A stretch of 64,000 bases of DNA from a plasmid. The translations under genes and the position numbers were made by a program. Shown here in pieces: positions 3,190 through 21,994 of this stretch. The DNA is taken from NCBI RefSeq assembly GCF_054482595.1, contig NZ_JBTHVH010000001.1; one strand, written 5' to 3'. The notes beneath the pieces were generated by a model. It did not search any database. It was not told where the DNA came from and saw nothing but the letters and a program-made list of their open reading frames with translations. Position 1 is the first letter of the stretch, and every line of letters begins with the position of its first letter.

Positions 3190-3408
3190 ATGTGGCCATT
3201 CCGACGGAAATATCACTACTGGCTGATCGCCTTTGTTACGCCGACCGGCGGTATCAGGCATGTCATCACCAGGTATCGCAACAAGAGACTCACCTTAGCC
3301 AGAATTTTACAGGCTGCCATAGGTGAGGGACTGGATACAAATTGCGTAGTCCTTCCTCCTTCATACTTAGGAAAAATGACCGAAGCACAAGCTAATACGG
3401 AACTTTGA
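3190..3408 (+). CDS. hypothetical small protein (72 aa)
   Basis: ORF directly downstream of operator pair; weak SD. Confidence 0.4.
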   Translation: MWPFRRKYHYWLIAFVTPTGGIRHVITRYRNKRLTLARILQAAIGEGLDTNCVVLPPSYLGKMTEAQANTEL

Positions 3409-3409
3409 A

Positions 3410-4672
3410 ATGAGCACTTCAGCACAAAACCAATCAATCGAAAATGTATGTATCCCTGATGTCCTGAATGCCGGTATCCCGGCCATTATCCAGAACATCC
3501 GGGCCGCGCAACGCCGCGTTAGTTGTGATGACCTCACAGCACGTTTTTTTGATAATGCGGTTCAGTCAGCGGAGATGCTTCACGCACAGCTTATTGATGT
3601 TTATAACGCAGAAGCTGATAGCCATAACTCCCTGGTAGATGCAGCTGAAAATATGCAGTTGGATCTCGGTCTGAAGGGTAAAGAAATTGAAGAGCTTCAG
3701 CTGCAAATTGAACATTTGAAACGCCAGCAACAGGACGCGATCGACGATGCGACGCATGACGCCAACCAGCGTGCTGATAATGCCGAACGTATAAGCATTG
3801 AGCTGGAAACAAAACTCAATGAAATGACCGCGATGGTTGAACTGCGGAACTCACAGATTTCAACGCTAAAATCTCAATATAAAGAGATCATGAAACTTGA
3901 TCCTTTTAACCTTGAGAAACGCTATAACAAAGCTAAAAGCGAGCGACAGGAACTGCGTAAGCAGGTCGCCGACCTTAACCAACAGCTCAAAAAAACTATT
4001 AAAGATGCAAGCGAAGCGCGCGTGGCATTTGCTAATAAAAAAGCAGAGGTTACCGCGCTGGTTAATGAGAATGCCAAATTTGCGACGCTCAAGAAGGAAA
4101 TGTATGGCATTACTGAGCGCCGTTTCCCTGCAAGCAAACTTCATCCGACGTTAGGGCAAATCTCCTTCTTCCCGCGCCTCCTGGCTTATGGGATCTCATC
4201 GCCTAAAGAGTTCAATAACGAGCGTCCTTATATCGTTTCTAAACTGGACTTTGCTTATCAGTTCTGCTGCGACATGGGCTATGCCATTGATATCCGAATC
4301 AACGAATGGTTGATGCCAAACTTCCAGCCGCTGGCCATTTTCCGCGAGTTCCAGCCGGAAGGTTGGGTAGAGTTCTTCCATGAATTGATCTGTAAAGAGA
4401 TGGAAAGCCGCCGCCCGGAACTGGTCCGCCGTGTCGAGTGGGCGCAAGAGGTTATGTTGGCAGATGCAGAGCTGCCGTTCGAACCGGAATTTATTGATGA
4501 TCTGGCAGCTAAAGGGCTGCATACCCTGTTTGATGTGGTTACCCGCCGTCATGAGCAGTTGGTTGTCGAATTGGGTTTAGAGGAAACAGCGGCAAGAAGA
4601 CTTCTCGATGTTTGCTATGCACGTAGCGATGCATGGGAAAAAGAGAACGGCGGCACTATTTACGTTCGCTGA
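3410..4672 (+). CDS. coiled-coil protein (420 aa)
   Basis: Long ORF, heptad-rich central region (EELQLQIEHLKRQQQ...), followed by terminator. Confidence 0.6.
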   Translation: MSTSAQNQSIENVCIPDVLNAGIPAIIQNIRAAQRRVSCDDLTARFFDNAVQSAEMLHAQLIDVYNAEADSHNSLVDAAENMQLDLGLKGKEIEELQLQIEHLKRQQQDAIDDATHDANQRADNAERISIELETKLNEMTAMVELRNSQISTLKSQYKEIMKLDPFNLEKRYNKAKSERQELRKQVADLNQQLKKTIKDASEARVAFANKKAEVTALVNENAKFATLKKEMYGITERRFPASKLHPTLGQISFFPRLLAYGISSPKEFNNERPYIVSKLDFAYQFCCDMGYAIDIRINEWLMPNFQPLAIFREFQPEGWVEFFHELICKEMESRRPELVRRVEWAQEVMLADAELPFEPEFIDDLAAKGLHTLFDVVTRRHEQLVVELGLEETAARRLLDVCYARSDAWEKENGGTIYVR

Positions 4673-4693
4673 CAGTTACAGTGTCACTTTTAA

Positions 4694-4728
4694 TGCTGGT
4701 GGAGTGCGCCCACCAGCATTTTTTTCGT
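4694..4728 (+). terminator. Rho-independent terminator
   Basis: gctggtgg agtgcgc ccaccagc hairpin followed by attttttt. Confidence 0.55.
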
Positions 4729-4744
4729 CCAATGAGGAGGGCAT

Positions 4745-5251
4745 TTGAGTATTTTCAATAAACACGCACACCAGGAACGTCCGTATATCGTCATAGTTGA
4801 TATTGATGGAACAATATCAGAGGCAACTGAAGACAGACTGCATTTGCTTCCGCCACCAGGTAAAGGTGCATTAACAAAGGACTGGAACGAGTTTAATCTC
4901 GCCTGTGACACCGATACTCCCATCACTCCAGTTATTGATATGGTGCGCCAGTTATTTAACGTTTACACGGTCTGGTTTGTAACCGGGCGCTGTGAGATCG
5001 CAAGGGATAAAACACGAGCCTGGCTGCGGAAGTACGTAACAAACGGGGCTGAGCCTTTGCTATCTATGCGTCCTGCCACCGATGACAGAAATGACGGCCC
5101 AGCAAAGATTGATCTCCTTAAGAAAATTGGTCTAAGTAAAATCGCGTTCGCGCTGGAAGATAAGATTGAAGTGGCGCGTGTTTTCAGGAGGCACGGCGTG
5201 CTTACGTTAATGGTCAGGGAGTATGAAAATGCGCTTCTTCATCAACAATGA
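4745..5251 (+). CDS. HAD-superfamily phosphatase/nucleotidase-like protein
   Basis: TTG start with AGGAGG SD; VDIDGTI (DxDGT) motif near N-terminus. Confidence 0.6.
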   Translation: MSIFNKHAHQERPYIVIVDIDGTISEATEDRLHLLPPPGKGALTKDWNEFNLACDTDTPITPVIDMVRQLFNVYTVWFVTGRCEIARDKTRAWLRKYVTNGAEPLLSMRPATDDRNDGPAKIDLLKKIGLSKIAFALEDKIEVARVFRRHGVLTLMVREYENALLHQQ

Positions 5252-5267
5252 TTGCTCTAATAAATCT
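5251..5267 (+). promoter_or_regulatory. C1 operator-like site
   Basis: ATTGCTCTAATAAATCT, 16/17 match to consensus. Confidence 0.65.
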
Positions 5268-5349
5268 TGATTTTTAAAACGGAGAAAGTGAAAATAAAAA
5301 CATGCCGCAAGGCGCGGCATGTATCCAATCAATCACAGGAGCTGAAAAT

Positions 5350-5436
5350 ATGAACACGGCATTCAAAATCATTATGGCCGCGATCTATTTCTGGCTGTTC
5401 TCTATCACTTTTGGCGGCATCGTCGCACATGGGTAA
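5350..5436 (+). CDS. candidate small hydrophobic peptide (28 aa)
   Basis: AGGAG SD 7 nt upstream of ATG; MNTAFKIIMAAIYFWLFSITFGGIVAHG; below the ORF-track size cutoff. Confidence 0.3.
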   Translation: MNTAFKIIMAAIYFWLFSITFGGIVAHG

Positions 5437-5445
5437 GGGGGATGC

Positions 5446-6174
5446 ATGAAAGGCGAAGTGAAAGAGCGCGGCATGATTTTCAACGATGAGATGGTCCGGG
5501 CCATCCTCGAAGGAAGGAAAACGCAGACGCGGCGGATAATGAAAAATCAGCCTGCGGAAGTTGGTCCAGAAGCACCAGTGATGGTTAGAAAAATTGGTGC
5601 AGGTTTTCAGTGGTACGGGGCTGATGGTGTAAGCAGTGTTTTCAATTGCCCATTTGGTATCGTCGGCGATCGAATTTGGGTTCGTGAAACATGGGCGATA
5701 TTAGGCAATGAGGATGGTTGCAGTGTGGACTGGAACGACAACCTTTGTCGTGGCGATGAGAAGAACGCAGCAAGGATTTATCGGGCCAGTTGCGAGCAAA
5801 AACCTGGTGATTACGGCTTATGGTCGATACCCGATGATGCCGACTGGAAACCTCACACTGTGAATGAAAAGTTTGATGGTGGGTGGCGTCCATCAATTCA
5901 CATGCCGCGATGGGCATCACGCATTCTGTTGGAAATTACCAACGTGCGCGTTGAACGGTTGAACGATATCAGCGAATGCGATGCAAGGGCTGAGGGCGTT
6001 CCGCCTGCTGGAAGTTTGCTTCCTGATCACCCGGGAACATTCCTTACTCCCAAGGGGGATTTCGCAATGGCCAAGGTTGCGTTCCAGCGCCTGTGGGAAT
6101 CCATCTATGGTGAAGAAAGCTGGAACGCTAATCCCTGGGTGTGGGTAATCGAGTTTAAGCGCATTCAGGAATAA
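5446..6174 (+). CDS. ASCH-like domain protein (242 aa)
   Basis: N-terminal FNDEMVRAILEGRKTQTRR resembles ASCH/PUA-like motif; good SD. Confidence 0.5.
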   Translation: MKGEVKERGMIFNDEMVRAILEGRKTQTRRIMKNQPAEVGPEAPVMVRKIGAGFQWYGADGVSSVFNCPFGIVGDRIWVRETWAILGNEDGCSVDWNDNLCRGDEKNAARIYRASCEQKPGDYGLWSIPDDADWKPHTVNEKFDGGWRPSIHMPRWASRILLEITNVRVERLNDISECDARAEGVPPAGSLLPDHPGTFLTPKGDFAMAKVAFQRLWESIYGEESWNANPWVWVIEFKRIQE

Positions 6175-6177
6175 ACC

Positions 6178-7056
6178 GTGAGTATGCATCAAGTCGTCAG
6201 CTTTTCAGGTGGACGAACATCGGCTTATCTCGTTCATCTGATGGAAGCACAGCGAAAAGCTGGCGCTAGCGTCCATTTCATTTTTATGGATACCGGCTGT
6301 GAACATCCTCTGACGTATCGCTTTATTCGTGAGGTTGTGAAGTTCTGGAACGTACCGCTAACGGTGTTGCAGGTCGATATAAATCCAGAACTTGGGCAGC
6401 CAAATGGTTATACGGAATGGGAACCAAAGGATATTCAGACGCGAATGCCGGTGCTTAAACCGTTTATGGACATGGTTAAAAAGTACGGTACGCCATACAT
6501 CGGCGGCGCGTTCTGTACCGACAGGCTAAAACTCACCCCTTTCACGAAATATTGCGATGACCATTTTGGGCGAGGGAATTACATCACATGGCTCGGTATT
6601 CGTGCGGACGAACCCCGTAGGCTGAAACCGAAACCGGGCGTCCGGTATCTTGCCGAACTGTCAGATTTTGATAAGTCGGATGTTATCCGGTGGTGGCGAA
6701 AACAACCTTTTGATTTGCAAATCCCGGAGCACCTCGGGAACTGTGTTTTTTGCATCAAAAAGTCAACGCAAAAGCTGGGGCTTGCATGTAAAGACGAACC
6801 AGGTCTGATGCGGGTTTTTAATGAACTGGTTACAGGCAAACACGTCAGGGATGGTCATCGCAGAACAGGTAAAGACGTTATGTACCGTGGCCACCTGACG
6901 CTTGACGGGATTGCCAGAATGTATGCCGACAGTGACTACAGAAATTTGTATCAGGCGATGGTGCTGGCCAAGCGGTTTGATACTGGTTCGTGTTCCGAAT
7001 CATGTGAAATCTGGGGTGACCAATTGGAGTTGAAATTCGAAGAGGTAGTGGAATGA
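6178..7056 (+). CDS. PAPS reductase-like PP-loop ATPase family protein
   Basis: SGGxxS PP-loop motif VSFSGGRTSAY; 292 aa. Confidence 0.75.
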   Translation: MSMHQVVSFSGGRTSAYLVHLMEAQRKAGASVHFIFMDTGCEHPLTYRFIREVVKFWNVPLTVLQVDINPELGQPNGYTEWEPKDIQTRMPVLKPFMDMVKKYGTPYIGGAFCTDRLKLTPFTKYCDDHFGRGNYITWLGIRADEPRRLKPKPGVRYLAELSDFDKSDVIRWWRKQPFDLQIPEHLGNCVFCIKKSTQKLGLACKDEPGLMRVFNELVTGKHVRDGHRRTGKDVMYRGHLTLDGIARMYADSDYRNLYQAMVLAKRFDTGSCSESCEIWGDQLELKFEEVVE

Positions 7057-21406: not shown

Positions 21407-21423
21407 TAATTTATTAGAGCAAT
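21407..21423 (-). promoter_or_regulatory. C1 operator (immC cluster)
   Basis: taatttattagagcaat, near-perfect reverse-complement of consensus. Confidence 0.6.
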
Positions 21424-21489: not shown

Positions 21490-21506
21490 ATTGCTCTAAT
21501 AATTCT
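21490..21506 (+). promoter_or_regulatory. C1 operator (immC cluster)
   Basis: ATTGCTCTAATAATTCT. Confidence 0.65.
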
Positions 21507-21549
21507 TGATTTTTATGCGCAGCTGGACGTAAACTCCTCTTCGGATCTA

Positions 21550-21583
21550 ATAACTTCGTATAGCATACATTATACGAAGTTAT
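21550..21583 (+). other. loxP: loxP recombination site
   Basis: Exact ATAACTTCGTATA-GCATACAT-TATACGAAGTTAT. Confidence 0.98.
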
Positions 21584-21772
21584 ATTAAGGGTTATTGAAT
21601 ATGATCAATTTACCTGTAAATCCATACAGTTCAATACTGTAGCAGGTCAAATAGTGACCACTTGATCATTTGATCAAGGTTGCGCTACGTAAAATCTGTG
21701 AAAAATTGGCGGTGTTAGTCCTACAGATTTCGCGTAGCGCACTTAGCACCACCAATCAATCAGAGGTGAAAA

Positions 21773-21994
21773 ATGGGATATTCAACTGCTAAAGTGTCCA
21801 CTCATCTTGAGCTTGAGAAAAACCGTGGTTACTGGCGGGCAAAAGGGTTTGATCGTGATAGTTGCCAACTGTCATTATCGCGCGGTGAAGAGAAAATAGA
21901 ACGCACGCGCGGTCGCTGGCGTTTCTATGACGAGAACCATAAACAGGTAAAGGCAGAGCCGATCCTGTACACTTTACTTAAAACCATTATCTGA
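21773..21994 (+). CDS. hypothetical small ORF between loxP and cre (73 aa)
   Basis: GAGGTG SD upstream of ATG; may be chance ORF in cre promoter region. Confidence 0.3.
   Translation: MGYSTAKVSTHLELEKNRGYWRAKGFDRDSCQLSLSRGEEKIERTRGRWRFYDENHKQVKAEPILYTLLKTII

Follow-up and report, generated by a model that had tools for sequence, protein, structure and literature searches.

Does the short stretch between the C1 repressor operator OpmgT and the first annotated gene of the pmgT operon in P1-like phage-plasmids encode a protein, and, if it does, is it the protein or only the act of translating it that matters? The question is raised by a plasmid sequence of 64,000 nucleotides (contig NZ_JBTHVH010000001.1; this whole stretch is referred to as the window), of which positions 4700–6200 are 98% identical to phage P1 and positions 5200–5500 are 100% identical to the E. 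coli plasmid NZ_LR130557. The element is a P1-like phage-plasmid. Few phages have been annotated as thoroughly as P1, and resistance genes are commonly carried by P1-like phage-plasmids. A first-pass annotation, made from the letters of the window, proposed a 28-codon gene for a hydrophobic peptide at this place. Here, we examine the locus, its counterparts in divergent relatives, and the explanations that can be offered for it.

The Small Open Reading Frame and Its Annotation

The small open reading frame (sORF) comprises 28 codons and a TAA, runs on the plus strand from an ATG at 5350, at about position 84392 in P1 coordinates, to the stop at 5434–5436, and has the product MNTAFKIIMAAIYFWLFSITFGGIVAHG, with one hydrophobic helix. 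The Shine–Dalgarno (SD) sequence AGGAG that the first-pass annotation had noted ahead of it lies at 5337–5341, 8 nt 5′ of the ATG, and shuffling the intergenic region yields an AGGAG-led ATG reading frame of at least 28 codons in 0.45% of cases. The single transmembrane helix that it had predicted agrees with the Kyte–Doolittle profile, in which the 19-residue maximum is 2.10 over residues 7–25. Its observation that the stop overlaps the SD of the next gene is likewise borne out: the TAA is the opening part of TAAGGGGG, the SD of a 242-aa reading frame with its ATG at 5446, and the sORF stop is thereby embedded within the stop/SD/start junction TAAGGGGGATGCATG (5434–5448, plus strand). Leader and whole sORF together show no extra structure, with a folding z-score of −1.1.

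The description of the gene as unannotated is correct for part of the record. The P1 reference has no feature between the operator and pmgT, and the PGAP and RefSeq records have no CDS at the sORF, but one E. coli O111 record annotates the 28-aa version (P0008), and in Salmonella phage SJ46 (YP_009293555), phi456 (Orf75), and JL22 (gp98) an in-frame 44-aa product is listed as a membrane protein or hypothetical protein. That product belongs to the same locus and frame, and its C-terminal 28 residues are the MNTAFKIIMAAIYFWLFSITFGGIVAHG peptide; it starts at the equivalent of an ATG at 5302, whereas the conserved start is at 5350. We reject the in-frame N-terminal extension (5302..5349, plus strand) as coding, since the ATG at 5302 lies within a hairpin stem, is without an SD, and has no counterpart in other lineages. 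Gene callers most likely chose it only because 28 codons fall below their length cutoff.

The full module to which the sORF belongs is present in 563 of 5426 complete E. coli genomes (about 10%), and 884 of the 5426 match some part of the segment. Most of the partial matches consist only of an 84-bp fragment that lacks the start codon and adjoins hsdR. This fragment (5357–5440 of the window; 4001–4084 of our locus on the IncF plasmid pKBN10P04869A, L008), which has neither SD nor start codon, occurs in hundreds of plasmids other than P1, of IncF type, where IS1A flanks it on one side and the 3′ end of a type IC hsdR on the other, and the P1 record notes the same 84 bp for R124/3. It indicates a molecular fossil: an hsd cassette once stood beside the sORF in a P1-like element and took a piece of it along.

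Operator, Predicted Promoters, and Upstream Neighbours

The position of the sORF downstream of a C1 operator, also claimed by the first-pass annotation, is supported by the P1 annotation and by a motif scan. The operator is OpmgT (formerly Op88), ATTGCTCTAATAAATCT, an asymmetric 17-bp site on the plus strand at 5251–5267 that is one mismatch from ATTGCTCTAATAAATTT. The scan detected six C1 operator matches in the window where 0.01 would be expected, and a C1 operator stands ahead of the module in all four lineages described below. Two predicted promoters on the plus strand are given in the P1 annotation. The sigma-70 promoter P1pmgT (5267..5295) has a −35 element TTGATT at 5267–5272, which abuts the operator, a 17-nt spacer, and a −10 element GAAAAT at 5290–5295; P2pmgT has its −35 element at 5252–5257 and its −10 element at 5275–5280. 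The pair TTGATT-17-NANAAT is found at the same position in every lineage, with the predicted −10 element ending 3–7 nt 5′ of the stem of a hairpin, and an A/T-rich spacer separates operator from hairpin. The operon, called the pmgT operon in P1, is predicted to be C1-controlled on the basis of the P1 record, which lists Op88 as a C1-controlled operator.

The upstream neighbour in the window is pap, which encodes a HAD-type 3′-phosphatase (4745..5251, plus strand, stop 5249–5251). Three of the four lineages lack pap, and there the module comes straight after pmgS (3335–3500 in locus L075, 2834–3000 in L076, and 2755–2920 in L081); pap is thus a variable insertion or deletion independent of the module. 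Between pmgS and pap, the window has a strong terminator-like hairpin of 11 bp followed by TTTTTTCGTCC (4692–4720, plus strand), which suggests that pmgS ends a transcription unit.

The Leader and a Predicted 5′ Stem-Loop

The sORF is preceded by a conserved leader, CCAATCAATCACAGGAGC, which includes the AGGAG (5325–5342, plus strand) and is near-identical across lineages, with the consensus (C)CAATCA(A/C)TCA(C/T)-GGAGC, while the flanking spacer diverges. Among P1-clade copies the leader is invariant, 54 of these copies having been retrieved through an exact-match anchor over 5323–5347. The leader motif recurs (CCAATCAATCAGAGGTGA) at 21752–21769, directly 5′ of a 73-aa cra-like reading frame (21773..21994) upstream of cre, in a region that also contains operators at 21407–21423 and 21490–21506 and loxP at 21548–21581. 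The operator and TTGATT block upstream of this second copy is 88.6% identical over 35 nt to 5242–5276. The motif may be a translation-initiation leader shared by C1-controlled early genes.

The GC-rich hairpin placed at 5302..5322 by the first-pass annotation does exist upstream of the sORF, at 5300–5322 on the plus strand, its division into loop and arms having been off by one base. It has a 9-bp stem and a 5-nt loop, ACAUGCCGC-AAGGC-GCGGCAUGU (arms also given as ACATGCCGC / GCGGCATGT), and folds at −16.3 kcal/mol (z = −5.0), a stability reached by none of 200 shuffles. Comparison between lineages shows, beyond that description, that the hairpin covaries, and its conserved distance from the −10 element puts it where the mRNA is predicted to begin. 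Six differing stem sequences occupy the same position; 89.9% of cells are paired, against 26–42% in slid controls, both partners have changed in 8 of the 11 pairs, and none of 500 shuffles reached the covariation score, in an alignment registered by hand in which the shorter P1 loops were padded with N. It is known that 5′-terminal hairpins such as that of ompA protect mRNA from 5′-end-dependent decay. The module resembles these systems in having a stable hairpin at the very start of the (here predicted) transcript and in keeping structure rather than sequence, and by this analogy we infer that the stem-loop would stabilise the mRNA. Unlike a pure stabiliser, the hairpin outside the P1 clade also keeps the sequence of its loop, which is 9 nt long and close to RYRCTWYCA in loci L069 (3043–3051), L072, L073, L075, L076, and L081, although the stems differ completely; the P1-clade loop differs and is shorter, AAGGC or variants with an added G or GG. 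The conserved loop outside P1 suggests a sequence-specific binding partner.

On the minus strand, the P1-clade hairpin and its tail TTTTATTTTC read as an intrinsic terminator, located just beyond the SD, which brings in a different account of the locus. The first-pass annotation had remarked that toxins or modulators are frequent among small membrane peptides of this sort. The peptide could be a type I toxin-like product checked by an antisense RNA that ends at this terminator, supplied in copies of hsd type (those followed by a convergent type IC hsdR) by read-through from hsdR. Like Hok, Ldr, Ibs, TisB, and ShoB, the peptide is small and hydrophobic and has a single helix; the minus-strand terminator recalls Ibs/Sib-type loci, and the minus strand has a sub-threshold Rfam match to the sRNA model GcvB. 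That match, at 20 bits, is below the gathering score of 42, however, and the terminator is confined to the P1 clade, in which the U-tract merely complements the A-rich region from −10 to +1. The other lineages have no minus-strand U-tract, and in L073 and L076 there are G-U wobbles that form pairs in plus-strand RNA only and weaken the minus-strand hairpin (in L073, −19.8 kcal/mol on the plus and −14.3 kcal/mol on the minus strand). A consensus scan at 8 of 12 matches, which is weak evidence, gave no minus-strand promoter candidate within 5300–5600 of the window or in the hsd-type copies; one candidate was seen, only in the P7-type downstream gene. The peptide matches no NCBIfam or PADLOC model, and, according to the P1 annotation, expression is already under control of the C1 repressor, a transcriptional mode unlike that of type I systems. 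Model matches and the minus-strand promoter scan thus gave no support for a toxin–antitoxin arrangement, which we consider very improbable. For the hairpin itself, the absence of a U-tract elsewhere, the wobbles that pair only on the plus strand, and the lack of a minus-strand promoter led us to reject a terminator or antisense RNA end as its general explanation.

At the sequence level, the comparisons define a module of five parts: C1 operator, abutting promoter, covarying stem-loop, SD leader, and micro-ORF.

Conservation Across P1-Like Lineages

Three further lineages with the module were located by Pap-based and peptide-based searches, while operator-anchored scans gave a sparse yield of two loci in IMG/VR and two in the GTDB representative genomes. 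The four lineages are that of E. coli P1, with a peptide of 28 aa; that of Salmonella plasmids, represented by pCFSAN058588 and its relatives, with 46 aa; a metagenomic clade, represented by the contig L075, with 48 aa; and the Cronobacter JK004 clade, made up of phage JK004 and four metagenomic relatives, with 53 aa. All share one layout, in which operator, promoter, hairpin, leader, ATG, and a reading frame for a hydrophobic helix follow each other, with the frame stop–start coupled to the next gene. Over their first 25 or so residues the peptides can be aligned gap-free; M1, K6, A11, and W15 do not vary, and other residues give way to similar, hydrophobic ones. The Kyte–Doolittle means of the helix are 2.0–2.3. 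An AlphaFold model of the 53-aa homologue has a helix over residues 2–23 at a pLDDT of 83–89, followed by a tail of low confidence.

Conservation of the reading frame in relatives was what the first-pass annotation had named as the check on a real small gene and as the point on which the idea could fail. Start, frame, and hydrophobic core are all kept in the three further lineages, and the constraint on them is specific to the frame. Over the 24–25 codons of the core, pS and pN are 0.80 and 0.19 for the window against L075 (p = 2.6e-5), 0.84 and 0.26 for the window against L081 (p = 6e-5), 0.63 and 0.17 for L081 against L075 (p = 7e-4), and 0.95 and 0.32 for L081 against L072 (p = 1e-5). Synonymous sites in the core are near saturation and non-synonymous change is low. 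In the other two frames of the same DNA, pS and pN are about equal and stops are present. Within the JK004 clade, dN/dS is 0.22–0.39 in four of six distinct pairs (Fisher p 0.0002 to 0.02); the pairs with L076 give 0.47 and 0.56, which are not significant. With the frame conserved and the constraint specific to it, the coding interpretation stands. As read from these substitution patterns, the hydrophobic core of about 25 residues has been under purifying selection across four P1-like lineages, and 5350–5436 is in all likelihood a genuine, conserved gene whose product is a tiny membrane peptide with a single helix.

The C-terminal tails are wholly different between lineages. The forms outside P1 carry 18–25 extra residues, the L075 tail looks frameshifted relative to that of JK004 just past K25, and the P1 form ends after the helix, with exactly the conserved core and no tail. 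The JK004-clade tail is constrained as well, with a dN/dS of 0.15–0.33.

The extra residues in other lineages could also mean that the P1 sORF is a non-functional relic, the stump of a longer ancestral gene of 46–53 aa that was cut by cargo recombination and is kept by the conserved regulatory DNA around it. Variation within the P1 clade is compatible with this. In a set of 60 full-length copies, taken from loci of phages, plasmids, and metagenomes with anchors outside the body of the reading frame and with the frame whole save for two truncations at contig ends, there are seven non-synonymous and four synonymous substitutions, a pattern that at a divergence of about 2% is indistinguishable from neutrality (p = 0.20). 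The block 5252–5440 is also far more uniform than pap, synonymous sites included, pap itself falling into two haplogroups about 7% apart. Nevertheless, the part of the family that is conserved is exactly the part that P1 keeps, and the comparisons of the window with L075 and L081 show strong constraint on the lineage leading to P1. Furthermore, in 73 P1-clade copies there is no frameshift or premature stop apart from two cuts at contig ends and three stop-loss deletion fusions, whereas the upstream spacer has indels among the same clade; the fusions retain the whole core and are broken only past it. A relic is, on this evidence, quite improbable.

Downstream Context and Coupling

The end of the sORF is a mosaic boundary, beyond which the cargo differs between elements. 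Among the 73 P1-clade copies, the sORF is followed by a pmgT/upf86.8-type gene in 44, by a convergent type IC hsdR with a break in homology at 5440 in 24, and by a deletion fusion that adds ten codons in 3. We reject site-specific recombination at the stop codon: a deletion over a 2-nt “TA” microhomology into upf87.4 accounts for the common “HGY...” variant. In the elements of hsd type a 12-bp hairpin follows the sORF, and a search for a terminator there found no U-tract on either strand.

In the window, the first cargo gene encodes 242 aa (5446..6174, plus strand), shares its N-terminus with both P1 PmgT and P7 Upf86.8, and has no Pfam match. Behind it, a 292-aa reading frame (6178–7056, plus strand) has a PP-loop/PAPS-reductase domain (Pfam PF01507, 2.8e-9), with the best PADLOC similarity to SspD and weaker similarity to DndC and BrxP. 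This frame is cargo of the variable region, missing at that place from the P1 reference and from the otherwise identical NZ_LR130557, and might serve in DNA modification or counter-defence. In the JK004 and L075 clades, the sORF is followed by a gene of about 104 aa, with weak MarR/TrmB-like Pfam hints in L073. Its Salmonella homologue (L081 3045–3338, NZ_CP077703.1) seems to be without PGAP annotation, an overlapping reading frame at 3235–3840 being called in its place.

The coupling of the sORF to this changing cargo suggests that the sORF might be a cis-acting leader cistron, in which only the act of translation counts, ribosomes are fed to the gene behind, and the peptide has no function in trans. 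A stop–start arrangement suited to coupling is kept in the four lineages, wherever a cistron follows, despite the differing downstream gene and by differing geometry: P1 has its stop inside the next SD, the JK004 clade has an ATGA overlap, L075 a TGATG overlap, and Salmonella a 5-nt gap. The mosaic breakpoint falls exactly at the stop codon, and the tails are unrelated or frameshifted between lineages. The main argument for such a leader is the distribution of peptide variants, which occur in 12 of the 24 stand-alone copies of hsd type, where no downstream cistron follows, and in 1 of the 44 coupled copies. This excess may reflect relaxed constraint after loss of the operon, or no more than the greater depth of that lineage. 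On the other side, a reading frame that serves to deliver ribosomes needs no particular sequence, yet pN is far below pS, K6, A11, and W15 do not vary, and a hydrophobic helix is kept at about 50% nucleotide identity. The constraint on the JK004-clade tail and the intact reading frame in 24 of 24 stand-alone copies likewise run against an effect in cis alone, which in our judgement is rather unlikely.

Relation to Known Small Membrane Proteins

The peptide has no significant match in Pfam, PHROG, NCBIfam, or PADLOC. An exhaustive profile search of 1.84 billion representatives returned the clades of the family itself with their fusion and truncation variants, together with three weak matches (E 8e-7 to 8e-4) to unrelated longer proteins of 148–953 aa, one of the three having been examined. 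None of the papers searched mentions the peptide, and the P1vir transcriptome paper is silent on the operon. The peptide represents a new, unnamed small-protein family, while phage-encoded single-pass membrane micro-proteins missed by annotation are a known kind.

Small inner-membrane proteins of up to 50 aa in E. coli include AcrZ, MgtS, KdpF, and YohP, a class presumed to act by binding larger membrane proteins. The peptide is like them in its length class, its one hydrophobic helix, its own SD, and its being missed by gene callers on account of size. It differs from them in showing no similarity to curated families and in being encoded by a phage-plasmid, repressed by C1, and at the head of an early operon.

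Phage holins and antiholins, such as LydA and LydB of P1 and S of lambda, are likewise small phage-encoded membrane proteins. The P1 lysis genes are late and Lpa-dependent and lie beside the lysozyme gene. The sORF, in contrast, stands behind an early promoter under C1 control among genes unrelated to lysis (pap, pmgT-like, and Ead-like), and the P1 form of the peptide is without a charged C-terminal domain. Promoter and neighbours thus set it apart from a holin or lysis cassette.

A Model for the Function of the Module

The reading that we favour, and hold to be probable as a whole, is that of a real membrane micro-protein gene which opens a C1-repressed early operon, is coupled to the cargo behind it, and has a role at the membrane in trans. 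The gene and its place as first cistron are the better supported parts of this reading; the trans-acting role at the membrane is one that we infer.

In a lysogen, the promoter would be held off by C1. Upon derepression, the transcript would start at the base of the stem-loop, which would protect the mRNA from 5′-end-dependent decay. Ribosomes would load on the unstructured, CA-rich leader with its SD, translate the peptide, terminate at the next start site, and pass on to the cargo genes. Being too short to be targeted during its synthesis, the peptide would insert into the inner membrane after its release and, as a small membrane modulator, would act there in trans early in lytic development. 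No defect in lytic growth followed CRISPRi knock-down of the operon (PMC10695390); the operon is non-essential for lytic growth in that screen and dispensable for plaque formation, and any role would be accessory.

A more far-reaching version of this model combines two proposals, and taken jointly we regard them as doubtful. The module would be a portable expression head for cargo exchange, with its breakpoint at the stop of the micro-ORF and with cargo of pmgT, upf86.8, wHTH, and PAPS-reductase type, and the peptide would be an early-lytic membrane effector that might, for example, alter the membrane potential or a host membrane complex in the service of takeover, exclusion, or counter-defence.

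Implications for P1 Biology

A conserved gene under selection that is absent from the reference and PGAP records, and is given the wrong start where a 44-aa product is annotated, merits addition to those annotations. The module marks the boundary of a region of cargo exchange. Should the module indeed be a portable head and the peptide an effector, the peptide would represent a previously unrecognised early function of P1. Were the peptide to act on the host membrane early in the lytic phase, P1 biology would gain a new player; were the sORF to work in cis alone, it would offer a clean natural case of a leader cistron with, all the same, a constraint on its peptide sequence.
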